Assembly (NCBI GenBank): GCA_016220005.1
Contig: JACRIV010000079.1
Location: forward strand, 1 to 61,903
Length of the DNA: 61,903 bases
Origin: Deltaproteobacteria bacterium
GTDB lineage: Bacteria; Desulfobacterota; Deferrimicrobia; Deferrimicrobiales; Deferrimicrobiaceae
Direction of reading: 5' to 3'
Shown here: positions 17,712 to 34,404 of the stretch, piece after piece
Position numbering within the stretch: the first letter of the stretch is position 1
Layout of the letters: every line of letters begins with the position of its first letter
Program-made: the position numbers and the translations under genes
The notes under the pieces: model-generated
Databases searched by the model: none
The model's input: the letters and a program-made list of their open reading frames with translations, nothing else
Told to the model about the DNA's origin: nothing

Positions 17712-18418
17712 CGGGTCCTCCTTCCCGCCAGCAACGCGGCCGGTTCGGCCACCGCCGGCAAGTCGACCTTGTCTTTCACGAATTCCGAATGCCTGAAGGG
17801 CAATGCGGCAGCCCGTATGTCCCGGGATGGGATGAGCCTCAACGGTACTCCCAGGGTCCGCGCCGCAATCCACAATCCCCGCTCCCCCGCCTTGATGTCG
17901 GCGGAGGCGAGCAGCCTCACCCGGGAGGGGTCCGTCGAGACCGTTGCGAGAGCTTCCGCAACCGCCCCGACGATTCTTTCCGCGGCGGTCCCGCGCCGGC
18001 ACCCGACCCCGACGATCACGTCCTTCAACGATTCCGACGTTGTCGTGATCACGGGCTCGGCGCCAAGGAGATTTGCCACCGTCACGGAGAGCTCGTTCGC
18101 CCCCCCCTCGTGGCCGGAAAGCAGGCTCACGGCGAACCTGCCTCCCGCGTCGACCACGACAACCGCCGGGTCCTCCCTCTTGTCCCGGACGTTCGGCGCC
18201 AGCCCCCTTACGACCGCTCCGCACGGCGCGATATAGACGAGCCCGCGATATCGGCGGAAGAGGTCCCGCGTCAGGTCCATGAGGCTCGCGAAGCGGATCC
18301 CGACGACCCGCGAAGGGACCTTTTCGTGGAGATAGATGGTGGCGCCGGGAAGTCCTTCCACGAGAATCTCCGCCGTCCTGGCGCCGGCCGAAGAAAGGGC
18401 GATGAGGGCGACCTTCAC
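17636..18418 (-). CDS. cbiG: Cobalt-precorrin-5A hydrolase
   Basis: DKREDPAVVVVD, LLSGHEGGAN, VITT, GVGCRRG, VAEPAAL. Confidence 0.9.
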   Translation of the reverse strand: MKVALIALSSAGARTAEILVEGLPGATIYLHEKVPSRVVGIRFASLMDLTRDLFRRYRGLVYIAPCGAVVRGLAPNVRDKREDPAVVVVDAGGRFAVSLLSGHEGGANELSVTVANLLGAEPVITTTSESLKDVIVGVGCRRGTAAERIVGAVAEALATVSTDPSRVRLLASADIKAGERGLWIAARTLGVPLRLIPSRDIRAAALPFRHSEFVKDKVDLPAVAEPAALLAGRRTRLLLPKTVYNGVAIAVAKENCTSSV

Positions 18419-19170
18419 GGCTTCCCCTCGCGGAAGCCGTGGGAAAATCCGGGGGCATAAAGCTTCGAGGAGGGGGCTTCCTGCGACAGCGCCTCCCCCA
18501 CGATCACCATCGCCGTCCTTCCGACTCCGGCGGTTTCCGTCTTCCCCGCGATATCGGCCAGCGTTCCCCGGACGATCGCCTGGTCCGGCCACGTGGCGCG
18601 GTAAACGACGGCGGCCGGACATCCTTCCCCCCGATGGCGGGCAAGCGTTTCCGCGATGTCCCGGATCCTCCCGGCGGAGAGGAAAAGACACAAAGTGGCC
18701 CCCGTCCGGCCCAGGACGGAAAGGTCCTGGTCCGCGGGGACGGGCGTCCGCCCGGAGCCGCGCGTCAGGATCACGGTCTGCGCGGCTTCCGGCACGGTGA
18801 GCTCCGCCTTCAACGCGGCGGCGGCGGCCTGGAAGGAGCTGACGCCGGGGACGACCTCGTATTCGATCCCCAGGCGCCCGAGTGCGTTCATCTGCTCCCG
18901 GATGGCGCCGTAAAGGGAGGGATCGCCGGAGTGGAGGCGGACGACGTCGGCGCCCTTCCGATGCGCCTCGCGGAACGCGTCGACGATCCGGGGGAGGGTC
19001 ATGCCGGCAGAGTCATACCGCTCGGCCGTTCCCGGAATCAGGTTCAGAATGGCGGGGTTCACGAGGGATCCCGCGTAGATGCATATCCGGCATTCCCTTA
19101 GCAGCCGGTGCGCCCTGATCGTCAACAGGTCCGGGTCTCCGGGTCCCGACCCCACGAAATATACCCTCAC
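18415..19170 (-). CDS. cbiF: Cobalt-precorrin-4 C11-methyltransferase
   Basis: VYFVGSGPGDPDLLT, YAGSLV, RLHSGDPSLYGA, SKLY. Confidence 0.92.
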   Translation of the reverse strand: MRVYFVGSGPGDPDLLTIRAHRLLRECRICIYAGSLVNPAILNLIPGTAERYDSAGMTLPRIVDAFREAHRKGADVVRLHSGDPSLYGAIREQMNALGRLGIEYEVVPGVSSFQAAAAALKAELTVPEAAQTVILTRGSGRTPVPADQDLSVLGRTGATLCLFLSAGRIRDIAETLARHRGEGCPAAVVYRATWPDQAIVRGTLADIAGKTETAGVGRTAMVIVGEALSQEAPSSKLYAPGFSHGFREGKP

Positions 19171-19895
19171 CTCTTCTCCTCCCTTTCCGTGCGCACCAGG
19201 ATGATGGAGAGGTAACCCGTTTCCCCGTCTTCGCCCCGCAGCCTCCGAAGATCGGTCTCGATCCGCTGGCCGTCCATTCCCGCCCGTGAGACGAACACGC
19301 TCCTGTCGAGGAAACCTTCGTTCTCCAGGAGATCGACCAGCTGTCCCAGTCGTCTGCCCACCTTCATCAGGACGAGCGTTCCCCCTGCGGCGAGGGCTTG
19401 CCGGACCGTCCGAAGGTCGTCCGCCGCCGGGACGATAGTCACCGGCTCCTTGAATCGCCCGATGGGGAACTCCGCCAGCGAGGCCGCGGCGCCCATTGCC
19501 GTGATCCCCGGTACGGTCACGACTTCCACTCCCGGGATGCGGGCACGGAGAGACTGAAGGAGGTAAATGTAGGTGGAATACAGGAGAGGATCCCCAAGGG
19601 TCAGGAAACAGGCATCCTGTCCGGATTCGAGGGAGGCGGCGATCTCCTCCGCCGACGCCTCCCATACCGAGGCCAGCTCCTTCCGATCCGTCGTCATGGG
19701 GAAGACCAGCTCGCAGACCCGGGAACCAGGGTCCAGGTACCTCCTTGCGATTTCCAGGGCGAGGCTCTCCGAGGCGTTTCCGGCCTTCGGAACGAACACG
19801 TTCCGACATCGCGCCAGAAGCTTCGCCCCCTTTACGGTCATCAGTTCGGGATCGCCGGGGCCGACGCCGATCCCGTAGAACGTTCCTCGTTTCAA
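19167..19895 (-). CDS. cbiL: Cobalt-precorrin-2 C20-methyltransferase
   Basis: YGIGVGPGDPELMT, FPM, TLGDPLLYSTY, YLS. Confidence 0.92.
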   Translation of the reverse strand: MKRGTFYGIGVGPGDPELMTVKGAKLLARCRNVFVPKAGNASESLALEIARRYLDPGSRVCELVFPMTTDRKELASVWEASAEEIAASLESGQDACFLTLGDPLLYSTYIYLLQSLRARIPGVEVVTVPGITAMGAAASLAEFPIGRFKEPVTIVPAADDLRTVRQALAAGGTLVLMKVGRRLGQLVDLLENEGFLDRSVFVSRAGMDGQRIETDLRRLRGEDGETGYLSIILVRTEREEKR

Positions 19896-20530
19896 ACAAA
19901 CACCCCATCGTTGAGGAGCAGGACGATACCCCTTCCGACGTTGGGCAGCCGGGAAAGTTCACCAGGGTCCACCTGGCGGATCCGTTCACCGGGAAGGGTC
20001 AGATCTTCACAAAGAAACACCCGGCGTCCCTCCCCAAGCTGTTCAAGCAGCTCCACGATCCGCCGGACTGATCCACCTCCTCCCACGAGGACGGCGATCT
20101 TGTCGGCATCGCGGAGACGCTCCATATCCCCCTCCGCCGGACGGCCATGGACGCTTACGACGTTCGCATCGTGCCACCCGAGCCCCAATCGGGCAAACAC
20201 CACCTGGACCGAACTGATCCCGGGGACTACTTCGCACGCATCGCGGCCGAACCGCGAAATCACCGGAAGGGCCAGGCTGTAAAGCCCGGGATCGCCGGAT
20301 ACGAGGACGGCTACCCTGCCCTGGCTCCGGCGGGACGAGATTTCGCCGAGTACCTTCTCGACGTCCGAACCGACGACGATCCGTTCCGCCATCGAGGAGG
20401 GAAAGAGCTCGAGGAGGCGTGCCGCTCCCACGAGGACATGGGCGCCCTCCACAGCCCGCTTCGCAGCGGGCGTCAGGTAGTCGGGGGATCCCGGACCGCA
20501 GCCCACGATGACGATCGTCTTGTCCCTCAT
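19892..20530 (-). CDS. cbiE: Cobalt-precorrin-7 C5-methyltransferase (stand-alone CbiE)
   Basis: IVGCGPG, LVSGDPGLYS, PGISSVQ, SVHGR; 212 aa with no CbiT domain. Confidence 0.88.
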   Translation of the reverse strand: MRDKTIVIVGCGPGSPDYLTPAAKRAVEGAHVLVGAARLLELFPSSMAERIVVGSDVEKVLGEISSRRSQGRVAVLVSGDPGLYSLALPVISRFGRDACEVVPGISSVQVVFARLGLGWHDANVVSVHGRPAEGDMERLRDADKIAVLVGGGGSVRRIVELLEQLGEGRRVFLCEDLTLPGERIRQVDPGELSRLPNVGRGIVLLLNDGVFV

Positions 20531-21582
20531 CTCCACGGGATCGTATCCCCGTCGGAGCCCAGGAGGTCCCCCCGCATGTCGACCAGGGCGACCGCCGCCC
20601 CGCTTTGGCGCCTCACGCGGCGCATGACCTCTTCCCGCACCTTGCCCGCCAGGTCCGCCGCAAGCGTTGCGCGGTCGGCCGCCGGCAGCGCGCCGAAGAT
20701 CCCTTCCACGGTGGGGCACTCCGGCGGCGTTCGACCGAGGACCCTTGCCGCAAGATCGACTACGTAAGGAACAGCCCGGGAAGACCGTGCGGAGTGGGTA
20801 TCCCACTGTCCCATGGCAAGCTTCGCGAGCTTGCCGGGGTGCCCGAGAACAAGCACGCGTTCGAACCGGTAATCCGGGATATGATCGAGAATGAATCCCC
20901 ACTCGTTGCCGACCTCGATCACTTGTTGGGTGGAAAGCCGGAAGTGTTCCCGAGCGGCTTTTTCCCCGATACGACCCGGTACAAGGACGGGCGAAAGGAC
21001 CCCGCACCCTGCTGCGACTCCGAGCGAACATTTCAACGCTTCCCGCAGCGCCGGAAGGCTGAAGGGGCGCACCCGTCCGGTGGTCCCCAGGATGGACAGG
21101 CCCCCGGCTACGCCGAGCCGGGGGTTGAACGTCCTTTCCGCCAACTTCCTTCCGCCGGGGATCGAGATGGTGACCTTGATCGGACGGTCCGTCACCTCGC
21201 GAACCGCTGCCTGAATCATCCCTCGCGGGACGGGATTGATGGCCGGCTCGCCCGGGGGGATTACGAGCCCCGGCCTGGTGACGGTCCCCACCCCCTCCCC
21301 GGCCGCGAAGGTCACGTCTCCTCCTTCCGCAAAGGACACCGACACCGATACCATCGCGCCATGGGTAACATCGACATCGTCACCGGCATCTTTCCGGACG
21401 GCGACTTCCGCCTCTGCGTTGCGCCGGCAGGCATGGACAGTCGACAAGGTCACTCGCGTCCCGTCCGGGAGGGAAACCTCGATCTCCCGTGGAGCCGGTC
21501 TGCCGCAAAGGACCATTGCGGCGGCCTTCGCTGCCGCCGCCGCACACGTCCCCGTCGAATATCCCGAACGGCCGGCATTCAT
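20527..21582 (-). CDS. cbiD: Cobalt-precorrin-5B C1-methyltransferase
   Basis: GYSTGTCAAAA, KDAGDDVDVTHG, AINPVPR, TFNPRLGVAGGLSILGTTG, GQWDTHS. Confidence 0.95.
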   Translation of the reverse strand: MNAGRSGYSTGTCAAAAAKAAAMVLCGRPAPREIEVSLPDGTRVTLSTVHACRRNAEAEVAVRKDAGDDVDVTHGAMVSVSVSFAEGGDVTFAAGEGVGTVTRPGLVIPPGEPAINPVPRGMIQAAVREVTDRPIKVTISIPGGRKLAERTFNPRLGVAGGLSILGTTGRVRPFSLPALREALKCSLGVAAGCGVLSPVLVPGRIGEKAAREHFRLSTQQVIEVGNEWGFILDHIPDYRFERVLVLGHPGKLAKLAMGQWDTHSARSSRAVPYVVDLAARVLGRTPPECPTVEGIFGALPAADRATLAADLAGKVREEVMRRVRRQSGAAVALVDMRGDLLGSDGDTIPWR

Positions 21583-22463
21583 TTGCCTCCCCCCTCCCGA
21601 TTCCCGACGATCAGCGCCTCGGGGATGAGATCCAGAAGTCGCTTGCGCGCCTCGCCCACCGTAAGCGGCAGGCCTTCGATCGGCACCCCATCGTATCGCT
21701 TCAGATCGTGGAGGAGGCCGGAAATGTAAGGCAGCCTCAAGCTCGCCCTCTCGATCATCTCGTGCTCGCAAAAGATCGCCTCCGGAGGCCCGTCCTTGAG
21801 CACCCTTCCCCCCCGAAACACGTAGATGCGGTCCGCGAAAAGGGGCAACAGGTCCACCGAATGGGTGGCAAGGATCACCGTGATCCCCCTTTCCCGGTTC
21901 AGCCGGCTGAGGAGGCGCATCATCAGCGTTTCGCCCGCCGGATCCAGCCCCGCCGTCGCCTCGTCGAGGATCAGGATCGACGGTTCCATCGCCAGCACCC
22001 CGGCCACGGCCACCCGCTTCTTCTCGCCGAAGCTCAAGTGATGCACCGCACGGGAGAGCAGGTCCCCCGCCACCACCGATTCCAAGGCGGCGGCGACGCG
22101 GCGCCCGACCTCCGGTTCCGGAAGTCCAAGGTTGCGCGGACCGAAGGCAACGTCCTCCTCCACAGTGGCGCCGAAGAGCTGGTCGTTCGGGTCCTGGAAG
22201 ACCACGCCCACCTCCTGGTAGAGATCCCTCGAGGGAAACCCCCGGATGTCCCGGCCCGCGATCCTGACCGTCCCCGTCCCGGGGCGCAACAGGCCGGAAA
22301 GCACCTTGATCAAGGTGGTCTTGCCCGATCCGTTCGAGGCGAGGACGGCCACGAACTCTCCCCTCCGCACCCGGAAATCTACGTCCTGTAGCGCCCGTGT
22401 CCCCTCGGGGTAGAGGAAGGAGAGGGCTTCCGTCTCAATAGCCCAGCCGCGTCCTGCTTCCAT
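21579..22463 (-). CDS. cbiO: Cobalt ECF transporter ATPase
   Basis: NGSGKTT, FQDPNDQLF, LSFGEKKRVA, LDEATAGLDP. Confidence 0.92.
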   Translation of the reverse strand: MEAGRGWAIETEALSFLYPEGTRALQDVDFRVRRGEFVAVLASNGSGKTTLIKVLSGLLRPGTGTVRIAGRDIRGFPSRDLYQEVGVVFQDPNDQLFGATVEEDVAFGPRNLGLPEPEVGRRVAAALESVVAGDLLSRAVHHLSFGEKKRVAVAGVLAMEPSILILDEATAGLDPAGETLMMRLLSRLNRERGITVILATHSVDLLPLFADRIYVFRGGRVLKDGPPEAIFCEHEMIERASLRLPYISGLLHDLKRYDGVPIEGLPLTVGEARKRLLDLIPEALIVGNREGGGK

Positions 22464-23239
22464 CACGGCAACATCCCTTCGGCGAGGAGATAGGCTGCCA
22501 GGAGGATAGGAGGCGCAACGCCTGCGACCAGGCGGTCCGCCCGGCGCATGGGGCCCATCGGCCCGAAGCCGATTTGCCCGGAATAGCCGCGGGCACTCAT
22601 GGCCTCGGCCGTCCGGGAAGCCTGGTCGACGGACCGGAGGAGGACCGTTCCCCCCAGGATCCCCATCGACGAGAGGGATCGTCCCGGACCCGAATATCCG
22701 AGGCGCACCCGTTGCGCGGCGGACACTTCCGCCGCCTGGTCCAGCAGAACGAACGTATAACGATAGGTGAGCATCGCGATCTCCACCCATCCGCCGGGAA
22801 CCCCGGCCCAGCGGAGGACATGAAAAACCCGATGAGCGGGCGTCACCGAGCCGAGCAGCAGAACGATGGACGAGCACCCGAGGACGCGAGCCCCCAGGAG
22901 AAGGCCGTGCCGCGCGCCTTCCGCCATGGCGGTGAACCGGACCCCTGCTACGGACACGCCGAAGAGCGGCGTGGCGCCGACCAGGAAGCTTTGCAGGAGC
23001 ACGAGGACGGATGCGATCACCGCCGGTCCGGCGAGTCGGGCGAGCACCCATCGGGCGGGAATTCGCACGGCGAACAGGCCGGACAGGCAAACGACGAACA
23101 CGGCGATCGGAAGCGTCGCACCGCCGGAGAAGAGCGCGGCCAATATGCCGGCAACCGCCACGGACAGCTTCGCCCTGGGGTCCAGCCGCACCAGCGCGTT
23201 ATCCCTTCCCGCGAAGATGTCCGAGAACAGCTCAACCAT
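22463..23239 (-). CDS. cbiQ: Cobalt ECF transporter T component
   Basis: LDPRAKL, YRY, AQRVRLG and AMSARG conserved Arg motifs. Confidence 0.9.
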   Translation of the reverse strand: MVELFSDIFAGRDNALVRLDPRAKLSVAVAGILAALFSGGATLPIAVFVVCLSGLFAVRIPARWVLARLAGPAVIASVLVLLQSFLVGATPLFGVSVAGVRFTAMAEGARHGLLLGARVLGCSSIVLLLGSVTPAHRVFHVLRWAGVPGGWVEIAMLTYRYTFVLLDQAAEVSAAQRVRLGYSGPGRSLSSMGILGGTVLLRSVDQASRTAEAMSARGYSGQIGFGPMGPMRRADRLVAGVAPPILLAAYLLAEGMLP

Positions 23240-23522
23240 CCTTCCGCCCGCTCCCGTCCCGCGTTTTCGGGGGGAACAGCTCCCGAAAGAAGTATCCGCC
23301 GACGCAGCCTCCCGCTCCTCCCGCAAGGAGAAAAAGGAACAGGAGAAGGTCCCCCCGGTCGGTGTTGATATACGGCTCCCGCGGAGGACGCCCCGCCTCC
23401 TCGGCGAACTTCGCCACCACCGTTTTGTCCACGCCCTCCCACTGGCCGCCGGGACCCGCGACCGCAAAGACGAGGACCGTCGCCAGGGAAACGACCGCTC
23501 CGGCCACGGCCACCCGCCTCAT
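23232..23522 (-). CDS. cbiN: Small cobalt-transport membrane protein (CbiN-like)
   Basis: Two TM segments around WEGVD...; position between cbiM and cbiQ; ATGA overlap with cbiM. Confidence 0.7.
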   Translation of the reverse strand: MRRVAVAGAVVSLATVLVFAVAGPGGQWEGVDKTVVAKFAEEAGRPPREPYINTDRGDLLLFLFLLAGGAGGCVGGYFFRELFPPKTRDGSGRKDG

Positions 23523-24262
23523 GGCGCCCATCCTTCCGCCGGGAGCTCCAGCAGCTCGGGGCGGCGCGTCCGGATGAATCGGTATGCCCCCGCCGCAAGG
23601 AATCCCTCGAAGACCCCCAAGGGAACCTGCGTCGGGACGAACGCGGCAAGGATCATCCGAAACAGGGCCGCGATGGAGCCGCCCCCGGCCAGCGCCGCGG
23701 AGAGCGAAAACGAGGTAGCAGCGTAAGTGCCCCAATCCGAGAGCAGGCCCGCGAGGAAAGCGGCAACGGGCCACGGCGCTCTAACCTTCCGCGCAAGGAG
23801 AAACGCGCCGTATCCGAGATAGCCGCCTACCACCCCCATGGACACGATGTTCGCGCCGAGGGTCGACAGCCCCCCGTGGGCCAGGAACAACGCCTGCAGC
23901 AGGAGCGCCACGCTGGTCACGATGACGGCCTGCCCGGGGCCGATGAGGATCGCCGCCAGGCCCGTGCCGCACGGGTGGGAACAGGTCCCCGCCGTGGGAA
24001 CCGGAATCGGCATGCACGAGACGACGAACACGCCCGCCCCCACCAGTCCCACCAGCGTCTTGAAATGGGGAGCCCGCCCGGCGCGAATCCGCAGGTCGCG
24101 CATTCCGAGGACGAGGAACGGCGCGGCCACGAGGAACCAGAACCCGGCCCACCCCGGCGGGAGGATCCCCTCGGAGATGTGCATCCCGTAGGCACGTCCC
24201 GGAAGCAAGGCAAGGGCGACGATCCACAGAACGTACGCCGCTTTTTCCCATCGAACCGTCAT
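23519..24262 (-). CDS. cbiM: Cobalt ECF transporter S component with signal peptide
   Basis: Mature N-terminus MHISEG, CSHPCG, QALFLAHGG. Confidence 0.93.
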   Translation of the reverse strand: MTVRWEKAAYVLWIVALALLPGRAYGMHISEGILPPGWAGFWFLVAAPFLVLGMRDLRIRAGRAPHFKTLVGLVGAGVFVVSCMPIPVPTAGTCSHPCGTGLAAILIGPGQAVIVTSVALLLQALFLAHGGLSTLGANIVSMGVVGGYLGYGAFLLARKVRAPWPVAAFLAGLLSDWGTYAATSFSLSAALAGGGSIAALFRMILAAFVPTQVPLGVFEGFLAAGAYRFIRTRRPELLELPAEGWAP

Positions 24263-24750
24263 TTCCGCCCTCCCCTGTCCTGATGGCCGGGGTCTTCCGG
24301 CCCCGAAGCGGACCGCTCCCGACCCCGCGGCATCATTTCGCGCACGTCGCGAAGGCTCAAGGACTCCGTCGCACGTTTCTCCACAAGGTCGACGAGGGAT
24401 TCGTCGTAGCCCAGGTTCTTGCCGAGAATCATCGTCACGTCCGGGTATCCTCGGACCTTTTCCCGCAACATCCCGGGGATGTCCTCCAGGAGGTGTTGCC
24501 CCTCATGGAGGAAATAGGGGATGACCACGACCTTTCCCGCCCTCACCGTGGCGCACTTCTCCAGAGCCTCGGACAGGGAGGGCTTCTGAAGCGACATGTG
24601 GCAAACCTCCACGAGGATGTACTTCCCCCTTTCCCTGAGCCTGGCGGCCACCTGTTCCATGGCTTTCCCGGCCCCCGGCAAGCGGCTCCCGTGGCCAAGG
24701 AGGATGACGGCTTCTCCGCTGAATTTGTTGCCCGTCGTGTCCCGGTCCAT
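24259..24750 (-). CDS. cbiX: Single-domain sirohydrochlorin cobaltochelatase (short CbiX)
   Basis: LLGHGSR, PYFLHEGQHLLEDIP. Confidence 0.88.
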   Translation of the reverse strand: MDRDTTGNKFSGEAVILLGHGSRLPGAGKAMEQVAARLRERGKYILVEVCHMSLQKPSLSEALEKCATVRAGKVVVIPYFLHEGQHLLEDIPGMLREKVRGYPDVTMILGKNLGYDESLVDLVEKRATESLSLRDVREMMPRGRERSASGPEDPGHQDRGGRK

Positions 24751-24756
24751 TCCGGG

Positions 24757-26187
24757 TCACCGCCCCTGGCTTCTTTCCGGCGTGCCGATCTCGATAGCGG
24801 TCGACATCCCGGTGTCCCAGCCGTCCCACAGGTACGCGCCTTCCTTGCCGTCGGCGATAAGCCGCAGTGCATATCGGACCTGCTCCTCGTACAGTTCGCA
24901 GAAAGCGCCGGGGCGGCGCATGCCTCCGTTCATCTCGTGCGCTTCGGCAGGACAGGGAGATCCGCAGAAATGTCGCACCGCACACCGGGAACAAGGTTCG
25001 ATGTCTTCCACCTTTCGTTGCGTCACTTTCCTGAAAGCCTGACTTTCGAGCGCCCTCGGAATCTCGTCCCTGAAGAGATTTCCGCCCTTGAACTCGCGGA
25101 ACCCGATGAACTCGCTGCAAGGGAAAAGATCCCCACGGGCGGATACCGCGAAGAAATACCGCCCGCCCCCGCAGGGCGAGATATCGCACATGAGCCGTCT
25201 TGCCGCGGGCGCAACGATGCTCACGAGCACATTGGCGAAGTTCGCGACCACCAGCTTTCGGCCACTCTCCCCGTACAATTCATACGAGCGATCGAGCGCC
25301 GCGAGATAGGGCACGGCAAGCTCCTTGTCCCGGGGCTTGAGGAAGCGGGCGCCCTGGCGGGTGCAACGAAGGGGGTTGAGCATGCACGCAGGAACTTCCT
25401 GTTCATGCAGGAACTCCACCATCCGGGGAAGCGAGCGCATGTTCCTGCTCGTCACGGTGCAGAGGACGTTGTAGTCCGGGTATCCCTTCAGTTTCTCCAG
25501 GGCGCCGGCCACGATCCTGAACGTTCCCTCCCCACCCCACGTTTTTCTCGTGCGATCCGCGACCTTGTCCAGGTGCCCGTCCAGCGACAGGCCGATGCCG
25601 ACCTTGCGCGAGGCCAGGAACCCGATCGCCTCGTCGTCCAACAGCGTGCCGTTGGTCTGCACGCCGAAGCGGAAATCGTCCCGGTATTCCTCGATCCCGG
25701 CGAAGACGGCGTCGCGGCAGAGCATCGGTTCCGAGCCGTGGAAGACGATCTGCGGCCGCGTTCCTCGGGGGAAATGCTTTTCGAAGTATGCTTTCAGTAT
25801 CCCGAGGGCCTCGATCAGCCTGGCCCGGGACATGCGCTTGCCCTCCCGGCGCATCTTTTCCGGGATGTAACAATAGGGGCAGTTGAGGTTGCAGCGTTCC
25901 GTGGGGTTGAAATAGACCGCCATCGGGTTCACTTCGAACCGGAGCTTCTCCATTTCCGACAGGAATGCGGCCCTTTTCCTGCGATATTGCGAAAAGAGGG
26001 AGCCGTCGGTGAGCGCTTCCCCGAGCTTCCTCTTCTTCACGAGAGACCAGAAAGCCGTATCGGGGTCCAGCAGGGCGATATAGTCCGGGTGCCCGATGTC
26101 GATCGGCTGTATCGTGGGCCCCTTACCCGTGTTGAAATAAATCCCTCGCGATGGTGTCTCGTTGCTCCCTTTTTTCAGGTCCGCCAC
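24757..26187 (-). CDS. cbpB: Radical SAM/SPASM peptide-modifying enzyme (CbpB-like)
   Basis: CNLNCPYC, FHGSEPML, QTNGTLL, GLSLDG; SPASM Cys pattern CDISPC...FPC...CSRC...FCGSPC...FC; family name recalled from TIGRFAM, not searched. Confidence 0.85.
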   Translation of the reverse strand: MADLKKGSNETPSRGIYFNTGKGPTIQPIDIGHPDYIALLDPDTAFWSLVKKRKLGEALTDGSLFSQYRRKRAAFLSEMEKLRFEVNPMAVYFNPTERCNLNCPYCYIPEKMRREGKRMSRARLIEALGILKAYFEKHFPRGTRPQIVFHGSEPMLCRDAVFAGIEEYRDDFRFGVQTNGTLLDDEAIGFLASRKVGIGLSLDGHLDKVADRTRKTWGGEGTFRIVAGALEKLKGYPDYNVLCTVTSRNMRSLPRMVEFLHEQEVPACMLNPLRCTRQGARFLKPRDKELAVPYLAALDRSYELYGESGRKLVVANFANVLVSIVAPAARRLMCDISPCGGGRYFFAVSARGDLFPCSEFIGFREFKGGNLFRDEIPRALESQAFRKVTQRKVEDIEPCSRCAVRHFCGSPCPAEAHEMNGGMRRPGAFCELYEEQVRYALRLIADGKEGAYLWDGWDTGMSTAIEIGTPERSQGR

Positions 26188-26268
26188 GATCGTCTCCTTG
26201 TTTCCTGTGGTCTCCCGCAGGTCGTGCGGGACCCCCGGCGACAGGACCGGGCGTCCCGCTCCGAACTC

Positions 26269-26376
26269 CTACCTGCTCTTCCCTTTCATGAAAAGGAAAT
26301 GGGACAGGCCGGTGCCAATGACCTTGCAGGTCTTGCGGTAAGCGATCACTGCCCTTGTCGTCTTGCTTTTCTTCAC
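26269..26376 (-). CDS. cbpA: 35-aa putative precursor peptide (CbpA-like): MKKSKTTRAVIAYRKTCKVIGTGLSHFLFMKGKSR
   Basis: SD AAGGAGGTGA then GTG 26376, stop TAG 26269-26271; directly upstream of the rSAM/SPASM gene; absent from the ORF track. Confidence 0.8.
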   Translation of the reverse strand: MKKSKTTRAVIAYRKTCKVIGTGLSHFLFMKGKSR

Positions 26377-26412
26377 GGGTATCACCTCCTTTCGGAGCAG
26401 GATGGTTCTCCC

Positions 26413-27096
26413 CTATTCCGATCTCCGAGCAGCCGCGGAACAGAGGGCATGAAGCGCGCTCACGGCCATGGGACTGCCGCCTCGCCGTCCGGAAACGGCG
26501 ACGAAAGACATTCCCAGGGACATCAGCTCCTGCTTGCTTTCCTCCACATGCACGAAGCCCACCGGCATGGCGATCACGAAGGCCGGCCGGATCCCTTCTT
26601 CGATGACAAGGCGGTTGAGCTCCAGCAGGGCGACCGGGGCGTTGCCGATCAACGCTATTCCTCCGTCGAGGGTCGCCCTGGCCTTGCGGACGGCGAAAAG
26701 GGAGCGCGGCAGGCCGCTTTCGACGGACTGCCGCGCCACGTCCTCGTCCGCCACATGACACACGATGCTGTCGCGGCCGTACGTCGGGCATGCCTCCCGC
26801 AGGCGATTCAGGGAAAGTCCGGCCCGAATCATGTTGGAGTCCGCATAAAGCGGGCGTCCGGCGCGAAGCGCCGCAGCCCCTGCTTCCACCGCATCCGGAG
26901 AAAATCTGACGTATTCCAACAGCCCGAAATCCGCGGTGGCATGAATCATTCGGCGGACCACCTGCCACTGGGCGGGTGCAAATCGGTGTGAGGGGACTTC
27001 CCTTTCGATTCTCTCGAGCGAGAGGGCCTCGATGGCCTCTCCGGTCAGCGGAGAAGCATAGAGCGACAGGATGAGGGGCGGGGCGTCACTCGCCAT
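26413..27096 (-). CDS. cbiC: Cobalt-precorrin-8 methylmutase
   Basis: RRMIHATAD, IGNAPVAL, MPVGFV, GRRGGS. Confidence 0.92.
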   Translation of the reverse strand: MASDAPPLILSLYASPLTGEAIEALSLERIEREVPSHRFAPAQWQVVRRMIHATADFGLLEYVRFSPDAVEAGAAALRAGRPLYADSNMIRAGLSLNRLREACPTYGRDSIVCHVADEDVARQSVESGLPRSLFAVRKARATLDGGIALIGNAPVALLELNRLVIEEGIRPAFVIAMPVGFVHVEESKQELMSLGMSFVAVSGRRGGSPMAVSALHALCSAAARRSE

Positions 27097-28480
27097 GGTT
27101 TTGCTCGCAAAGCGAAAGAAAGCTCTCCACGGAACGCGGATGGGATCCGAAATGAACGTGAACATAGCTCGCCAGCGTCCGGCTTCGCCCATATCCCTCC
27201 GGAATCACGGCCTCCGACCGCCGGTGCCTGATACGATAGACAGCCCTCCACGCGGGATCCGCGAACGGATCGCCGGTCAAGTCGGAGTAATGGAACTCAT
27301 GCCCGCGAAGGATCGTACCGGGGGGACCCAGGAGCGTATTCTCCGACAGGTTGATCTCGGCATACCCCAGCCTCTTCGGACGGTTGAGCATACGGGTCCA
27401 CGACGGCAGCAGCCCGACGAAGCCGTGACGCGCACCGTCCCGGGTCTCGATCCCTTCCGCCAGGTACATCAATCCGCCGCACTCGGCGTATACCGGACGG
27501 CCACTCTCCGCGAAACGCTTCACCGCCTCTATCATGTGCCGGTTCCTCGAGAGCGTCTCCGCATGTTCTTCCGGGTATCCTCCGCCGATATACAGCCCGT
27601 CGAGTTTTTCCGGCAGGCGCTCGTCCCTTATCGGGGAGAACCGGACCAGTTCGCCCCCGCCCGCTTCAAGCGCCTCCAGGTTGTCGGGATAATAGAAATG
27701 AAACGCCTCGTCCCAGGCCACCCCGATCCGCACCCGCCTCTTGCGTCCCGGGGGATTGCCGGATGCGCAAACGCGTCGGACCTTGGCCACGCCGTGCGCC
27801 AGCTTCATCACCGCCTCCAACGAAACATGCCTCTCCAGAACGTCTGAGAACGCTCCAAGGAGTTCCGGCGTCAACGTCCCGGGATCCGCAGGGGCCAGGC
27901 CCAGGTGCCGGCTTCGCAAGGCGGGAAAAGCACCCCGGGAGATCCTGCCGAGAAGCGGCGGCAAGGACGATCCCCGGAGGGATTCGGCCAGCCAGGCAGC
28001 GTGCCGGTCCGATCCGCACCGGTTTGCGACAACGCCGGCCACTCTTACGCCGCGCTCGAATCCGGTAAACCCCTTCACCGTCGCGGCCACGCTGCGGGAC
28101 ATGCCGCCGGCGTCGACCACCAGCAGCACCGGAGCGGAAAGCCACCGAGCGATCTCGGCGGTGCTCCCTTCGGAGGAAACGGGGTCAGCCCCATCGAAAA
28201 GACCCATCACCCCTTCGACGATCGCCACGTCCGCCCCGGCAACGGCGCGGGCGAAAAGCGCGTGCACGTACGCTTCCCCGGTCATCCAGCCATCGAGGTT
28301 GTAGCAGGGCCTCCCTGAGGCCAAGGCCAGGTAGGAAGGGTCCAGGAAGTCGGGCCCCACCTTGAAGGTCTGCACCCGGAGCCCACGCCGTTTCAGGGAG
28401 GCAGCAAGGGCGAGGGAAAGGGAGGTCTTCCCGACCCCGCTGCCGGTACCCGCAATGACGACGGTGGGACACGACGCCAT
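27086..28480 (-). CDS. cbiA: Cobyrinate a,c-diamide synthase
   Basis: SGVGKT, FKVGPDFLDP, EGVMGLFDG, AFHFYY, AECGGLMYL, GHEFHY. Confidence 0.95.
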   Translation of the reverse strand: MASCPTVVIAGTGSGVGKTSLSLALAASLKRRGLRVQTFKVGPDFLDPSYLALASGRPCYNLDGWMTGEAYVHALFARAVAGADVAIVEGVMGLFDGADPVSSEGSTAEIARWLSAPVLLVVDAGGMSRSVAATVKGFTGFERGVRVAGVVANRCGSDRHAAWLAESLRGSSLPPLLGRISRGAFPALRSRHLGLAPADPGTLTPELLGAFSDVLERHVSLEAVMKLAHGVAKVRRVCASGNPPGRKRRVRIGVAWDEAFHFYYPDNLEALEAGGGELVRFSPIRDERLPEKLDGLYIGGGYPEEHAETLSRNRHMIEAVKRFAESGRPVYAECGGLMYLAEGIETRDGARHGFVGLLPSWTRMLNRPKRLGYAEINLSENTLLGPPGTILRGHEFHYSDLTGDPFADPAWRAVYRIRHRRSEAVIPEGYGRSRTLASYVHVHFGSHPRSVESFLSLCEQNHGE

Positions 28481-28496
28481 CACAATTCCACCCCTT

Positions 28497-29471
28497 TCAT
28501 GCCACACCTCCTCCTTGCCCCCACCAGGCGCCGATCAGGAACCTCGCACCGAGGAAAAAGGCCACCGCAAGGCCCGAGACGGCCAGCGCCAGCGCATTCG
28601 CCTGCCTGATGTGATGGGGATCCGGAGGTACGGCGGAATCCCCCAGCAGCGGCTTCATCGAGGGTCGCCCGTCGTAGTAATTCAGGCCGCCCAGCTGCAC
28701 GCCGAGGGCCCCCGCCACGGCCGCCTCCGTATGCCCCGAGTTGGGGCTGGGATGCTTGTGCCGATCGCGAAGGAAGATGCGCAGGGAATCGGAAGCCTTA
28801 AAGCCCAGGAAAAATGCGGCGACGGGCACCAGGAGTCCCGTCACCCTGGCGGGAAGGAAGTTGGCCGCGTCGTCCGCGCGGGCGGAGATCCGGCCAAAGG
28901 CGATATAGCGCTCGTTCCGGTAGCCGAAGAGGGAGTCGAGCGTATTCACCGCGCGGTAGGTCACGGCTCCCAGAGGCCCGAACAGGACGGCGTAAAAGAG
29001 GGGGGCCGTGATCCCGTCGACGATATTCTCCGCCACGCTTTCCACCGCGGCGCGAACGACCCCCGGCTCCTCGAGCCGATCCGTGTCGCGTCCGACGATC
29101 CTGGCCACCTTCTTCCGCGCTTCTGCAAGGTCCCCCTTCTCCAACGCCCGGTACACATGGGCGCCGTGCCCGACCAGGTCTCTCGCAGCGAGGCAGAAAT
29201 AGAGGAGCAGGATGGAGATCCCGTCCGCGGCCGATGGGTTCAGCCAGCGGGTACAACGGATGAGGGCGAAGGCGGCAAGGAACGTCGAAAGCAGCACGGC
29301 GGAGAACACGGCGATCCCCGCCGCCTCGGGATCCTTCAGCGATCGCCGGAAGGGCATTTCCAGGGACGCAGCGAAGCGCCCGATCCCTCGGACAGGGTGT
29401 GGAAGCCACCGGGGGTCCCCCAGCGCCATGTCCAGGGCGATGGCGGAAAGGATCTGATATTCCAGCCTCAC
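28497..29471 (-). CDS. cbiB: Adenosylcobinamide-phosphate synthase
   Basis: [33 protein letters not shown]. Confidence 0.94.
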
Positions 29472-32044
29472 GAAAGCCCCATCGCCCGGTAGATCTCCTT
29501 GATCCGCACGTTTTGCCGGACGGTTGCGGCCAGGCGCTCCAGGGCGGGCTCCAGGTCGTACTTCCCGAGTATTTTTCCAAGGGGGGAAAGGTCGCGCCTT
29601 TGTCTCAGTCGGTCGATGAACCATCGACGGAACGCATCCGCATCGAAGATCCCGTGCATATAGGTGCCCCATATGCGCCCGTCGGATGAGGACGCGCCTT
29701 CGTTCTCTCCGTCCTCCCGGCGCAGGACCGGAGCCATCCCTTCGGACCGGGTCCTGCCGTGGTGGATCTCGTAGCCATGCACGATGACACCCGACGCAAT
29801 GTGCAGCCCCTTCGTGCGGGCGAGGATCTTCCCGCTTTGCATCGCCGTGCACACCGGGAGGAGCGAGAGACCCTTCACGGGCCCGCCCGCGGACTCGACG
29901 CGGTCCGGGTCGGCGATCGTTTCCCCCATCATCTGGAAGCCGCCGCAGATCCCCACCACTTCCGTTCCGCCCCCCGCCGCCAGGGAGGCGATCTTCCGGT
30001 CCAGTCCCTGCCTCCGCAGGTACTCGAGGTCGCCGGACACGTTCCTGCTCCCCGGGAGGATCACGGCATCCGGCCGCCCGAGGTCTTCCGGAGAACGCAC
30101 GATGCGCACGCGGACATCCGGTTCGACACGGAAGGGGTCGACGTCCGTGAAATTCGAAATGTGGGGCAGGTCGACCACGGCGATTTCCACCTCCCCCGCG
30201 GAAAGAGGGAAAACTTCGCTTACGGCAGCCTTGAAGGCCACGGAGTCTTCCTCCGGCAGTCCCAGACCGTGCAGATAGGGGACCACTCCCAGCACGGGAC
30301 GTCCCGTGTAACGCATGAGGTGATCCAGGGCATCCTCCAACAGCCCCGCCTTCCCGCGGAACCGGTTGACGATGTATCCGGCCACCAGGGACCGTTCCCA
30401 TTCGGACAGCGTCTCCATCGTTCCGACGAAGGAGGCGAACACGCCACCCCGGTCGATGTCGCCGACGAGCAGGACTTTTGCCTCCGCATGGCGGGCCATC
30501 TTCATGTTGACGATGTCGTGCCGTTTCAGGTTGATTTCCGCCGGACTCCCCGCCCCCTCCAACACGATGACATCGAACTCGCGCGCAAGAGAGTCGTACG
30601 CCTCCCTTGCCGTCTCGAAGGCCTTAGGCTTGTACCGGGTGTACCCCTCGACGTCCATGTTCCCGACCGGCTTTCCGCCGACGATCACCTGCGCGCCGGT
30701 GTCGCTGTTGGGCTTGAGCAGGACGGGGTTCATGCCCACGTCCGGCTCGATCCGGCACGCCTGCGCCTGGAGAACCTGGGCCCGTCCCATCTCGCCGCCC
30801 TTCGTTGTCACGAATGAATTGAGCGACATGTTCTGCGCCTTGAAAGGCGCCACCCGGTAGCCGTCCTGGAGCAGGATGCGGCACAGCGCGGCGGCGAGGA
30901 CGCTCTTGCCGGCGCCGGAAGAGGTTCCCTGGACCATGACGGCAGGCGTCCGGCGGCGGCGTTGGAGAACTTTTCCGGGCGCGCCGAGGGCGTTCCGGAG
31001 CCTCTCGCACAAGCGGCCGTTTTCCTCTTCCGTGCGTACGGCGACGCGCAAGAAACGGGCATCCAGCCCGGCGAAGTCGTCGCACGTCCGGATGGCGATC
31101 CCGTCCTGCAGCATCCGCCGCGCCAGCGCGGGCGCATCGATGGTCTTTCGGTCGATCCGCGCAAGCAGGAAGTTCGCTTTTCCCGGATAAACGAAAAGCC
31201 CGGGGATCGACCGGAGATCGCCCGCGAGCCGTTCCCGCTGCAGCCCAACGTACTCCCGCGAGCGCGCCACGTATTCCTCGTCCCGCAACGCCGCGACGCC
31301 GACGGCCTGGGCGACCGTGTTGACCGACCAGGGGGGCTGCAACGCCCGGATCCGGGCGATGAGATCGGAGTCGCCGACGGCGCAGCCGAGCCGCAAGCCC
31401 GGGATGGCGAACGTCTTGGTCAACGAGAGCAGGACGACGACGTTGGAGGGGCGATTCTTCGTCAGCCGATCCATCCCTTCGACGAAATCGGCGAACGCCT
31501 CGTCCACGACGAATGTCGTGGACGGATGGGACGCGGCGAGGGAACGGATCGCCTCCGCGTCGCAGAGCAGCCCGGTCGGATTGTTCGGGCAGCCGATGAA
31601 GACCGGCTCTCCCCCTTCGAGCCTTGCGCCGAGCGCCCGGACGTCCAGGGCGAACCCGTCTTCCTCTCTCATCGGAATCGACGCGACGGCAAGCCCCGCC
31701 GAACGCGCGGCGACCGCGTAATCGACATACGCCGGCTCCGGGATGACGGCGCGGGAAGCGCCGCATGCCCGCGCCAGGAGAAACAGGATCTCGGACGTTC
31801 CGTTTCCGGCGACAACCTCGTCCTTCGATGCGCCGTAGCGGGATGCCGCCGCCTCGACAAGGGCCGAACAGTCCGGGTCCGGGTAATGGGCGACGGACCC
31901 GATGGTCGCGCTTACCAGCGGGCGCAGCCATTCCGGAGGCCCCAGCGGGTTGATGTTTGCGGAGAAATCCAGTATCTCCCCCGGCGGCCGTCCGGTCACG
32001 GCCGCCAGCCTCCGAAGATTTCCCCCGTGTCCGTCTTTCCTCAC
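29468..32044 (-). CDS. cbiP: Fusion of L-threonine-O-3-phosphate decarboxylase (CobD) and cobyric acid synthase (CbiP/CobQ)
   Basis: N-terminal [32 protein letters not shown]; C-terminal [38 protein letters not shown]. Confidence 0.93.
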
Positions 32045-32054
32045 GGCATCGGCC

Positions 32055-32795
32055 TCATGCCGAACGCACCGCGGCAGCCAGCGCCGGAATCATCTCGACG
32101 AGCTCGCAGGCGGCTCCCAACGTGTCCCCCGTAAAACCGCCGATTCTTCTGTAGCTGTACCCCGCGAAAAGGAGGGCCGAGATGACCGAGGTCCCGGCGA
32201 TTACCAGCCCCATCCATCCCAACGCCCACCAGGCCGCGAAGGCAAAGACCGCGAAGGCCCATGCCGCCTGCCGGGCCGGCCGACCCTTAAGGAACCAATG
32301 GCACAGTCCCCCGTTGGTACGGGCATAGGGAAGAAGCGCCATCGTGACCGCGAGGGCGCAACGCCCGGCCACGGGCATCAGCAGCACGGTCCCCCACCGC
32401 AGGGGACGGGGGACGGAGGCCAGAACGGCGATCTTCAACGCGATGACGCACGCCACCGCGGCGGCTCCCATGGGCCCTGTCCTGCTGTCCCTCATGATTT
32501 CGAGGATTCGGTCCCGCGTGCGGAAGCTGAAAAAACCGTCCGCCGTATCCGCCAGACCGTCTATATGCAGTCCCCCCGAAGCCGCCAGCAGGACGATCAC
32601 GACGAGAACCGCTGCCGGAAAGGGGGGCAGGATTCGGCGGAGCAGATAATCCGAAACCGCCGCGAGCCCCCCGATGCACAATCCCACCGCCGTGAAGAAA
32701 GGGATGCTGCGGCCGAGCTCATCCTCCCCTCCGCACCATCGCGCGGGTATGGGCAGGATGGTCAAAAACCGGAGCGCCGCAAAGAAGGGGATCAC
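32055..32795 (-). CDS. cobS: Adenosylcobinamide-GDP ribazoletransferase
   Basis: [36 protein letters not shown]. Confidence 0.93.
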
Positions 32796-33856
32796 TTGTC
32801 CGCCCCGGAGACCGCCGCTTCCTCGAATGTCGCCACTTCCGACAATACCCGCACGGCGCCCTCCACGATGGGCATGGCCAGCGCCGCGCCGGTCCCTTCC
32901 CCAAGCCTCAAGTCCAGGTCGAGGAGCGGCTTCTTCCCCAGGCGCCGGAGGGCGATCCGGTGGCCCATTTCCACGCTCAGGTGCGCCGCGATCATGTAGT
33001 CGGTTGCGCGCGGGGCGAGATGGCAGGCGATCAGCGCGCCCGCCGTCGAAATGAAACCGTCCACAAGGACCGGCTTCCGCAGGGAGGCGGCCCCGAGAAT
33101 CAATCCGGCGATCCCGCCGATCTCGAAACCGCCCACCTTCGCCAGGACGTCGAGAGGATCCTTCGGATCGGGCCGGTTGACCTCCAGGACTTTCTCGACC
33201 ACGGCGATCTTCCCCCGCAGGCATTCGTCGTCGATCCCCGTTCCGCGGCCGGTGACTTCGGCTGCGGGGGCCCCTGTCAGGGCGGCCACGATGGCGCTGC
33301 TCGGAGTCGTATTGGCGATCCCCATGTCTCCCGTGGCGAAGACGTCGATCTCCGGGGCCAGCTCCAACGCCGCTTCGATCCCCGCCTCCACGCAGCGGAC
33401 CGCGTCCTCGCGGCGCATGGCCGGGCCCAGCGCGATATTCCTTGTGCCGGGTCCGATTCGCCGGGACAGGATCTTTCCCTCGGCGGCCAAGCCTTCAAGG
33501 CCGCCCGCCACCCCCATGTCTATCACGATCACGCGAGCGCCGGCCAGGCGGGCCAAGGCGTTGATGCCGGCCCCCCCGTTGACGAAGTTGCAGACCATCT
33601 GCCGCGTCACTTCCTGGGGGTATCTGCTCACGCCCTCCGAAGCCACGCCGTGATCGCCGGCCATGACAACGACGGCCTTTCGCTCCACGGGAGGACGGAG
33701 AGACCGTGTCATTCCCGCGAGGTCCTCCGCCAGGTCCATCAGGCGCCCCAGGGCCCAATGCGGCATCGTCAGCCGGTCCAGACGCGACTTCGCCGCCGCC
33801 CGCGAAGCGGGATCCTGGGCGACAATCCTTCCGACCGTTTCGTCTAGAAGACGCAT
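32792..33856 (-). CDS. cobT: Nicotinate-nucleotide--dimethylbenzimidazole phosphoribosyltransferase
   Basis: AGDHGV, GDMGIANTT, GGFEIG, LRLGEGTGA. Confidence 0.95.
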   Translation of the reverse strand: MRLLDETVGRIVAQDPASRAAAKSRLDRLTMPHWALGRLMDLAEDLAGMTRSLRPPVERKAVVVMAGDHGVASEGVSRYPQEVTRQMVCNFVNGGAGINALARLAGARVIVIDMGVAGGLEGLAAEGKILSRRIGPGTRNIALGPAMRREDAVRCVEAGIEAALELAPEIDVFATGDMGIANTTPSSAIVAALTGAPAAEVTGRGTGIDDECLRGKIAVVEKVLEVNRPDPKDPLDVLAKVGGFEIGGIAGLILGAASLRKPVLVDGFISTAGALIACHLAPRATDYMIAAHLSVEMGHRIALRRLGKKPLLDLDLRLGEGTGAALAMPIVEGAVRVLSEVATFEEAAVSGADK

Positions 33857-34404
33857 TCAGCACCTTTTCCTTTCAAGGATAGTGGAAGGCCGCAGACCAG
33901 AAGGGTCACTTCATCCGCGCCTTCCGCCATGATCTGGCCGCATCTGCCCAGGAGGTCGCGGAAGTTCCGGGACACGGGATTCTCCGGGACGATTCCCATC
34001 CCCACCTCGCCGGTCACGAAGACGACCGTGCCCGAAAGTCCCCGGCAAACGGCAAGGAGCTCCCGGCAACGGCGGACGATCTCCTCCTCCCCTGCCTCCC
34101 TGCCCGCGACCTGCGCCCCGTAGACAAGGTTGTTGATCCACATCGTCAGGCAGTCCACCAGGAGGACGTTGCAGCCCTGAGCATCCTGCAAGGCTCCCGC
34201 CAGGTCCACGGGCTCCTCGATCGTCTCCCATCCCGCGTTCCGGCGTTCCGCCCGGTGTTTCCGTATCCGTTCCCGCGTCTCCTCATCGAAAGGCGTACCG
34301 GTGGCAATGAAAGCCCGAGGGGAAGGGATCCCCTCTGCGAGCCGGCGCGCGTACCCGCTCTTTCCGCTGCGGGCGCCTCCCGTTACCAGAACCACCCTGC
34401 CCAC
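33844..34404 (-). CDS. cobU: Adenosylcobinamide kinase/guanylyltransferase
   Basis: GGARSGKS, RIRKH, LVDCLT, EVGMGIVP. Confidence 0.94.
   Translation of the reverse strand: MGRVVLVTGGARSGKSGYARRLAEGIPSPRAFIATGTPFDEETRERIRKHRAERRNAGWETIEEPVDLAGALQDAQGCNVLLVDCLTMWINNLVYGAQVAGREAGEEEIVRRCRELLAVCRGLSGTVVFVTGEVGMGIVPENPVSRNFRDLLGRCGQIMAEGADEVTLLVCGLPLSLKGKGAECVF

Follow-up and report, generated by a model that had tools for sequence, protein, structure and literature searches.

Radical S-adenosylmethionine (SAM) enzymes with a SPASM domain are at the core of the described systems that come closest to the locus analysed here. These are the NCBIfam pair TIGR04164 ('modified peptide precursor CbpA') and TIGR04163 ('peptide-modifying radical SAM enzyme CbpB'), the thioether maturases PapB and CteB (the SCIFF maturase), anSME, and the pairs PqqA/PqqE and MftA/MftC. 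With these we compared a gene pair, cbpA-cbpB, on the minus strand of a 61,903-nucleotide stretch of DNA (contig JACRIV010000079.1 of assembly GCA_016220005.1, a Deltaproteobacteria bacterium of the Deferrimicrobiaceae), referred to below as the window. The pair lies in a cobalamin (B12) operon, and we interpret it, with moderate confidence, as encoding a ribosomally made 35-residue peptide together with its dedicated radical SAM/SPASM enzyme, the peptide remaining uncleaved in the cytoplasm, probably being cross-linked through Cys17 and acting at the corrinoid stage of B12 supply. The B12 pathway counts among the best-mapped long biosynthetic routes, yet this module is present in at least 571 species-representative genomes and no published product or function was found for it. 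A literature search returned no paper on the CbpA/CbpB family and no characterised product, in agreement with an earlier interpretation made from the letters alone (the sequence-only reading); PMC9204691, in the part available, deals with SbtM rather than with CbpA/CbpB.

The peptide, the enzyme and their described relatives

The sequence-only reading had reported a 35-residue open reading frame (ORF) with a strong Shine-Dalgarno sequence ahead of a 476-residue radical SAM/SPASM enzyme. Coordinates as well as Pfam and NCBIfam assignments bear this out, with GTG as the start codon of the peptide gene:

26376..26269, minus strand: cbpA, precursor peptide gene, 35 codons plus stop, GTG start (not ATG)
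26391..26382, minus strand: Shine-Dalgarno sequence AAGGAGGTGA, 5 nt 5' of the cbpA GTG, read from the sequence
26187..24757, minus strand: cbpB, radical SAM/SPASM enzyme gene, 476 aa, GTG start, AAGGAGA 5 nt upstream

The peptide had also been described as absent from the mechanically made ORF list, which is true of the 35-residue form only, as a 38-residue version beginning at an upstream GTG at 26385, overlapping the Shine-Dalgarno sequence, is listed there. The 35-codon reading, with the translation (V/M)KKSKTTRAVIAYRKTCKVIGTGLSHFLFMKGKSR, is the sensible one; its end lies 81 nt from the start of cbpB. The peptide consists of a recognition stretch (residues 9-14, AVIAYR), a core (C17-x5-G23-L24-S25-H26-F27) and a Lys-rich tail, and contains a single Cys, from which the sequence continues as C-K-V-I-G. 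All elements of the core pattern R-x-x-C-x(5-7)-G-L-S-H-aromatic are present (R14, C17, G23, L24, S25, H26 and F27).

CbpA aligned through residues 10-33 with the 25-position TIGR04164 model and scored 34.5 bits (E 9.9e-9) against a curated cut-off of 35; with a hidden Markov model (HMM) built from four orthologues, the window peptide itself being one of the four seeds, it scored 64.2 bits. CbpB matched TIGR04163 with 709.7 bits (cut-off 375; model positions 2-428 of 428), and with 709.9 bits in a six-frame search of the genome. By these scores, that of CbpA being 0.5 bit short, the pair is a member of the curated CbpA/CbpB family, itself only a prediction, and the two names given in the sequence-only reading are the correct ones in NCBIfam. 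The window shares with this family the gene order of peptide then enzyme and the cobalamin context, and differs from it by Phe for the usual Tyr in CbpA, Tyr for the usual C344 in CbpB and the slight shortfall of the CbpA score. For the window by itself the result is thus modest, a well-behaved member of a curated family without a characterised product.

The enzyme carries the motif C99-x3-C103-x2-C106, a Pfam Radical_SAM domain (residues 94-236) and a SPASM domain (Pfam, residues 339-402, 27.9 bits against a cut-off of 21.5; TIGR04085, 55.8 bits against 27). Ahead of the radical SAM core lie about 90 residues, with a putative docking domain at approximately residues 21-90. The three Cys of the motif as well as eight Cys of the SPASM region (C334, C339, C357, C399, C402, C408, C412 and C430) were invariant in 24 CbpB sequences, and these eight would be enough for two fully ligated auxiliary clusters. 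Residue 344 (window 25156-25158), within a CGGGRC stretch near the first auxiliary cluster, is Tyr in the window, Cys in 22 of the 24 aligned sequences and Ala in locus L007; judging from this alignment, a Cys at this position is evidently dispensable.

A model of CbpB made with AlphaFold (AF2; predicted local distance difference test, pLDDT, 86.6) had CteB as its top structural match (5WHY/5WGG; E 7e-20 to 1e-18, 453-475 aligned columns, 21-22% identity), while the core and SPASM domain superposed best with anSME (template modelling score, TM, 0.81-0.85; root mean square deviation 3.1-3.5; 374-385 columns). Further fold matches were ChlB, TigE and SuiB as well as PqqE (6C8V, E 1.2e-6). Outside its own family, CbpB scored best with the HMM of the thioether-forming PapB (134.1 bits, cut-off 340), and anSME was third-best (119.7 bits, cut-off 349.45). 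DynA (116 bits) and YhhB (101.6 bits) gave values similar to that of PapB, and the SCIFF maturase and QhpD reached 102.2 (cut-off 425) and 99.5 bits (cut-off 453), respectively; all of these lie far under the family cut-offs.

With CteB and PapB the enzyme would share an N-terminal peptide-docking domain, the radical SAM barrel and a two-cluster SPASM domain, as well as a substrate with an invariant Cys. It differs from them in that CbpA has one Cys instead of several, in the B12 context and in its low scores, and thus appears to resemble the PapB/SCIFF thioether maturases without being a member of either family. In CteB the first auxiliary cluster (Aux I) has an open site, whereas the Aux I region of CbpB seems to hold enough invariant Cys for full ligation. 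The likeness to anSME covers the core and the SPASM fold; anSME is without the N-terminal docking domain, as only the 374-385 columns aligned, and the substrate of CbpB would be a dedicated small peptide and not a sulfatase. PqqA/PqqE and MftA/MftC correspond to the present pair in combining a small dedicated peptide with a SPASM enzyme within a cofactor-related gene set. In contrast to these, CbpB had no Pfam PqqD match at E <= 0.01, there is no linked peptidase or further enzyme, and the conserved block of CbpA is internal, not C-terminal.

The N-terminal domain of CbpB was modelled as three strands followed by two helices. When modelled in isolation (pLDDT 76.3) it had no Foldseek match with E < 1, and its best VIA-align Z was 3.9, with CteB reaching only 2.8. 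Because the isolated model found no convincing match and Pfam PqqD was not recognised, we do not file this domain as a PqqD-type RRE. The sequence-only reading had suggested looking for an RRE-like domain in the N-terminal extension, and this extension is predicted to hold CbpA by strand pairing on its strand beta3.

This prediction comes from a model of CbpB with three 4Fe-4S clusters, SAM and CbpA, run together with three controls. The CbpB-CbpA complex scored 0.87 and the best of the controls 0.01; in the calibration a mark this high was achieved for 58 of the 80 solved complexes and for 2 of the 110 mismatched pairs. At least 77% of the contacts were common to the runs, with a partner pLDDT of at least 62. 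The surest predicted contacts join CbpA residues 9-12 to CbpB strand 46-51 (expected errors 0.4-1.0 A, the lowest in the model), while R14 is placed against CbpB residues 325-327, 75 and 461-464, and CbpA 19-31 against the barrel strands and CbpB residues 339-345 and 357-359, beside the first auxiliary cluster. Binding of CbpA by CbpB is supported by this model. CbpB would accordingly dock the peptide through residues 9-12, paired with beta3 (46-51) of the N-terminal domain, and through the invariant R14, which would bring the C17...GLSH(F/Y) core into the barrel near the auxiliary-cluster region.

Conservation of the pair and its control by cobalamin

Two samples were examined, namely 301 genomes of the phylum of the window and a wider scan with one genome per species. 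In the phylum sample cbpB was above cut-off in 28 genomes, which provided 29 loci; the wider scan found at least 571 CbpB relatives, of which 80 loci were kept (the named loci). These relatives cover Desulfobacterota-type metagenome-assembled genomes (MAGs), Planctomycetota, Chloroflexi, Verrucomicrobiota, Acidobacteriota, Omnitrophota, Elusimicrobia and others. With the HMM from four peptides, a CbpA homologue was found directly upstream of cbpB on the same strand in 27 of the 29 phylum loci. Two loci gave none: L033 holds only part of the gene and lacks upstream sequence, and L031, whose CbpB is divergent (42% identity; genome G007), had nothing recognisable in 608 nt upstream and was excluded from the peptide alignment. 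The peptide was likewise found upstream of cbpB in 75 of the 80 named loci, all five misses having less than 180 nt of upstream sequence. Such an association is far beyond chance.

The orthologous peptides are 30-50 aa long, small and Lys-rich at their ends, and nearly all of their genes start with ATG behind a GGAGG-type Shine-Dalgarno sequence. R14, C17, G23, L24, S25 and H26 were invariant in the alignment of 27 peptides, and R, C, G, L and H remained so in the wider set of 75, where Ser25 was replaced by Ala in two. Residue 27 is aromatic throughout (Tyr in at least 90% of the 27-peptide set, Phe in the window), and the spacing between the Cys and GLSH is 5, 6 or 7 residues. Of the three residues singled out in the sequence-only reading, C17 and H26 are accordingly invariant, while Y13 is not, since that position is occupied by Y/F/H/I/L in the 27-peptide set and additionally by R/T/Q/S/C in the wider set, ten residues altogether. 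Each invariant residue is encoded by 2 to 5 synonymous codons, which indicates that the constraint on CbpA acts at the protein level and thus that the peptide itself is under selection. One variant, L063, has a single peptide ORF with two tandem units of recognition stretch and C...GLSHY core, as in multi-core precursors of ribosomally synthesised and post-translationally modified peptides (RiPPs).

Control by B12 is the most constant feature of the CbpA/CbpB family. Of 37 loci tested (20 + 12 + 5), 33 carried a cobalamin riboswitch immediately 5' of cbpA and in the same orientation. These were 18 of 20 phylum loci taken without selection, 11 of the 12 named loci picked for having no B12 gene within 6 kb, and four of five Chloroflexi loci, the fifth having only 313 nt upstream. 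The other exceptions were L042 and the two loci L015 and L021, in both of which none was seen even with a 10 kb flank. Together with the riboswitch of the window operon described below, this substantiates the earlier assignment of the pair to the B12 regulon. At L024, a second cobalamin riboswitch (1137-1324, minus strand, 105.1 bits) lies immediately behind cbpB, at the head of the B12 genes beyond it, so that here cbpAB has a separate switch even where it abuts another B12 operon.

Beyond the riboswitch, the neighbourhood of the pair varies, as seen when the B12 proteins of the window were used as queries. Approximately 17 loci had cbiC-cbpB followed by cbiX, cbiM or cbiL, approximately 20 had cbpB beside cobU/T/S/C, and many were without any B12 neighbour; cbiX followed cbpB in a minority of loci only, although the order cbiC-cbpB-cbiX-cbiM was seen again in several phyla (e.g. 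L034, L038, L044, L048 and L071). Where cbpAB stands alone, the genes beyond cbpB were unrelated or on the opposite strand. A conserved third gene was considered and rejected, as these loci carry IS200-type transposases, HEAT-repeat proteins, a sulfatase or genes without a family match, none of them common. The conserved unit is the riboswitch, the peptide and the enzyme.

No protease or exporter was conserved near cbpAB in the more than 100 loci examined, which extends to the family what had been noted for the window, and neither a signal peptide nor a double-glycine site was present in CbpA at any locus examined. The pair thus offers an encoded precursor and a dedicated modifying enzyme predicted to bind it, as in a RiPP system; leader removal and export have no counterpart here, given the lack of a protease or transporter and leaders of down to 3 residues (L007, L064). 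Neither step is obligatory for all RiPPs.

A few unrelated elements were encountered at these loci. Matches to the Acido-Lenti-1 sRNA (43.5-51 bits, gathering score 37) occur in L006 (1237-1281, minus strand), on the opposite strand inside an unusually long cbpA-cbpB gap of about 420 nt, and in L093 (8640-8685 and 10333-10378, minus strand). L084, on a complete Chthoniobacteraceae chromosome, has a match to a group II intron catalytic domain just after cbpB (7403-7508, minus strand, 46.8 bits).

Chemistry and function of the modified peptide

Reductive cleavage of SAM would yield a 5'-deoxyadenosyl radical, which would take a hydrogen from the CbpA core. By analogy with PapB, CteB and QhpD, the most likely outcome would be an intramolecular thioether that links Cys17 to one of the residues of GL(S)H(Y/F), giving a small, uncleaved, cytoplasmic cyclic peptide whose synthesis would be confined to B12 shortage. 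Another radical reaction of CbpB on the peptide that leaves Cys17 without a cross-link, such as its conversion to formylglycine in the manner of anSME, a C-C or C-N link of the dynobactin or triceptide type at His26 or at aromatic residue 27, or an epimerisation, appears unlikely to us. The standing of anSME among the HMM and structural matches, the closeness of the DynA and YhhB scores to that of PapB, the invariance of H26 and the aromatic character of position 27 would all suit such a reaction, but every one of these scores is far under its family cut-off, the substrate motif of anSME, C/S-x-P/A-x-R, is absent from CbpA, and Ser25 tolerates Ala. Moreover, a single invariant Cys at a variable distance of 5-7 residues from an invariant block has the look usual for thioether macrocycles.

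Concerning function, the sequence-only reading had proposed a modified peptide inside the cell that acts as cobalt chaperone or buffer for CbiX. On this view Co2+ from the importer CbiMNQO would be passed to the chelatase CbiX, with Cys and His of the peptide as metal ligands. The window itself invites this idea, as cbpB is followed after 7 nt by cbiX and then by cbiM, an order repeated in several phyla, and C17 and H26 are invariant. Moreover, within the phylum sample CbiC was found in 25 of 28 cbpB-positive genomes compared with 132 of all 301, and the pair is therefore enriched in B12 producers there, even though only 25 of the 132 CbiC-positive genomes have cbpB.

Outside the phylum, CbiC was present in one of five and in 32 of 50 cbpB-positive genomes, counts that cover 55 of the 80 named loci. 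Altogether 22 CbiC-negative, cbpB-positive genomes were compiled (18 from the set of 50, three from the set of five, and G073), G304 being left out since CbiX and CbiD are present in it. Among these 22, CbiF was above cut-off in only three and CobS was present in 16; 14, including genomes of 5.0 to 16.1 Mb, had CobS but neither of the ring markers CbiC and CbiF. One of these 14 is G073 (96% complete), in which CbiX and CbiD were not found either, a CobA adenosyltransferase is present and cbpA-cbpB-cobT-cobS-cobD-cbiB, a salvage operon headed by cbpAB, follows bamA. The pair thus seems to serve salvagers of cobinamide or cobyric acid as well as de novo producers. Occurrence in both groups fits a corrinoid-stage role better than cobalt insertion, and because the pair adjoins cobT/cobS in genomes where no corrin-ring or cobalt-chelatase genes were found, we infer from gene distribution that its role is more likely at the corrinoid stage than in Co2+ delivery to CbiX. 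The setting of cbpAB in most tested loci, either alone with its riboswitch or beside cobU/T/S, the minority in which cbiX follows cbpB and the variability of Y13 speak against such a delivery. A cobalt chaperone or buffer for CbiX is not supported as the general function of the family, and we give the chaperone reading a low likelihood. As a side observation, G340, the genome of L073, has a CbiC match with two internal TGA codons and a ThiC match with four internal stops, which may be decaying genes or reflect an assembly problem.

Several points weigh against a cross-linked peptide acting on corrinoids. Most of the apparent salvagers are MAGs of unstated completeness, and one of them, G343, has cbiX-cbiM adjoining cbpB, so that at least this absence is due to incomplete assembly. 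The enrichment of CbiC within the phylum of the window likewise runs counter to it, and in producers, given this enrichment and the abutment of cbpB and cbiX-cbiM in the window, a cobalt-linked role may still hold. The cross-link is drawn from analogy with PapB, CteB and QhpD, under whose cut-offs CbpB falls far (134/340, 102/425 and 99.5/453), the window peptide is 0.5 bit below the curated TIGR04164 cut-off, and Ser25, being Ala in 2/75 peptides, is not an essential site. The high score of the complex may stem from likeness to solved maturase-peptide complexes, CteB, SuiB and ChlB being among the fold matches, and the modelling job was unlike the calibration in carrying custom alignments and ligands.

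At the corrinoid stage, the peptide would bind corrinoids, protect them or pass them on while they are salvaged, amidated or fitted with the nucleotide loop, and His26 or a Cys-derived sulfur may mediate this. More specifically, and as a tentative suggestion that we rate as rather doubtful, the modified CbpA would be a B12-repressed cytoplasmic cross-linked mini-peptide that binds corrinoid intermediates by means of His26 and/or the Cys17-derived sulfur and passes them to the late enzymes CbiB, CobU, CobS and CobT, or that has a nucleotide-loop or lower-ligand function in anaerobes without the Bza route. If true, no earlier factor of B12 assembly or salvage would have been based on a peptide, and this one would be spread over hundreds of species in at least eight phyla. 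Cobamide exchange shapes community function in anaerobic communities such as those of Dehalococcoidia, syntrophs, planctomycetes and verrucomicrobia, and a corrinoid-handling peptide would be a new kind of player in cobamide salvage and remodelling there. The module is small and self-contained, consisting of one peptide of 30-50 aa and one enzyme whose complex is predicted with high confidence, and is therefore directly testable.

A lower-ligand connection could also take a different form, in which CbpA is consumed as the precursor of a small molecule, in the way that PqqA gives PQQ and MftA gives mycofactocin. Such a molecule could, for instance, be an alternative to the lower ligand from the Bza route, or another component of the nucleotide loop. 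The pair indeed occupies a bza-type slot, with its own cobalamin riboswitch and often directly before cobT. A second ThiC-family gene was found in none of the 28 cbpB-positive genomes of the phylum sample but in 43 of the 107 that were CbiC-positive and cbpB-negative (hand count); four of five inspected second copies were B12-linked (two by a cobalamin riboswitch, two within about 5 kb of cbiC), a judgement based on riboswitch or neighbourhood only, as NCBIfam is without a BzaF-specific model. BluB was above cut-off in none of five cbpB-positive genomes tested. This exclusion fails elsewhere, as 7 of 55 cbpB-positive genomes of other phyla have at least two ThiC-family genes, one of them with a true BzaB (739.8 bits, cut-off 700) beside the second ThiC-like gene. 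In addition, 64 of the 107 genomes lack both systems, relatedness among the genomes means that they do not count as independent samples, and no peptidase or tailoring gene is conserved beside the pair. A general replacement of the Bza route by cbpAB was therefore set aside as at most partial, and a sacrificial role of CbpA is in our view distinctly improbable.

Export of the modified peptide through an unlinked transporter, to serve as a corrinoid or cobalt scavenger or as a signal, is very improbable; B12 repression would suit a scavenger and the peptide is small with Lys-rich ends, but exporter, protease, signal peptide and double-glycine site are missing from every locus examined and the leaders are as short as 3 residues. 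Equally hard to credit is that the real substrate of CbpB is a corrinoid or a protein, with CbpA as accessory or regulator, for example in a radical adenosylation of Co(II) corrinoids: the window operon yielded no adenosyltransferase gene in family searches and G041 (100% complete) is without CobA- and PduO-type enzymes, but CbpA is predicted to fill the substrate barrel and we count peptide and enzyme as always paired. Replacement of the adenosyltransferase by such a reaction was rejected, since the CobA type is present in four of five cbpB-positive genomes tested, including that of the window with two copies, and the PduO type in one of the five.

The cobalamin operon of the window

The genes surrounding the pair in the window were assigned with NCBIfam and Pfam and have the order cysG, cobC, cobU, cobT, cobS, cobD-cobQ (one ORF), cbiB, cbiA, cbiC, cbpA, cbpB, cbiX, cbiM, cbiQ, cbiO, cbiD, cbiE, cbiL, cbiF, cbiG, cbiH and cbiJ. 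The principal features are:

16174..36802, minus strand: riboswitch-led cobalamin operon, NCBIfam and Pfam assignments, no strong internal terminator
36802..36620, minus strand: cobalamin riboswitch aptamer, RF00174, 105.8 bits (gathering score 31.5), the sole RF00174 match, heading the operon
36558..36528, minus strand: terminator-like hairpin after the aptamer, 14 pairs, 9 GC, T-rich tail
26413..27192, minus strand: cbiC ORF (precorrin-8X methylmutase), Pfam CbiC 211.5 bits
24750..24259, minus strand: cbiX (small sirohydrochlorin cobaltochelatase type), Pfam CbiX 90.1 bits, starting 7 nt after the cbpB stop
24262..23519, minus strand: cbiM (cobalt energy-coupling factor (ECF) transporter S component), NF006184 244.3 bits, TIGR00123 184.2 bits

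The hairpin at 36558..36528 is the strongest of 25 terminator-like sites in 17000..36900, with no comparable one inside the operon, and is the likely expression platform of the riboswitch. The pair had been described as lying downstream of a cobalamin riboswitch, which is correct at the scale of the operon, but the switch is located approximately 10.2 kb upstream and is not adjacent. Between the stop of cbiC and the start of cbpA lie just 36 nt, too few for a further riboswitch, and cbpAB in the window therefore has none of its own and relies on this distant one.

The position reported earlier, between cbiC and cbiX-cbiMNQO, was recovered by family assignments for cbiC, cbiX, cbiM, cbiQ and cbiO, but not for cbiN, which had no NCBIfam or Pfam match. 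In the gap between cbiM and cbiQ (23200-23520, minus strand), the expected place of cbiN, the ORFs 23232..23774 and 23017..23649 are without NCBIfam or Pfam match. In the available part of Rodionov et al. 2004 (PMC545781), a Geobacter B12 locus has cbiMNQO adjoining cbiX, and a radical SAM gene is not mentioned there. That cbpAB fills a missing pathway step was considered and rejected, as every expected gene of the anaerobic pathway is present in the operon, including cbiJ and cbiG.

The cobD-cobQ ORF (29468-32044, minus strand) spans 858 uninterrupted codons; residues 6-349 make up the CobD part (threonine-phosphate decarboxylase) and residues 368-855 the CobQ part (cobyric acid synthase). 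Either the two genes are fused or they share a frame with no stop codon between them. With regard to the origin of the operon, neither cbpB nor CbiC was found in any of the seven other sampled genomes of the window's own family (0/7 each), while the genome of the window has the full 20-kb B12 operon. The closest cbpB relative among the matches listed, L034, comes from a differently labelled MAG and has 80% identity and the same gene order; the whole B12 operon of the window may have been horizontally acquired.

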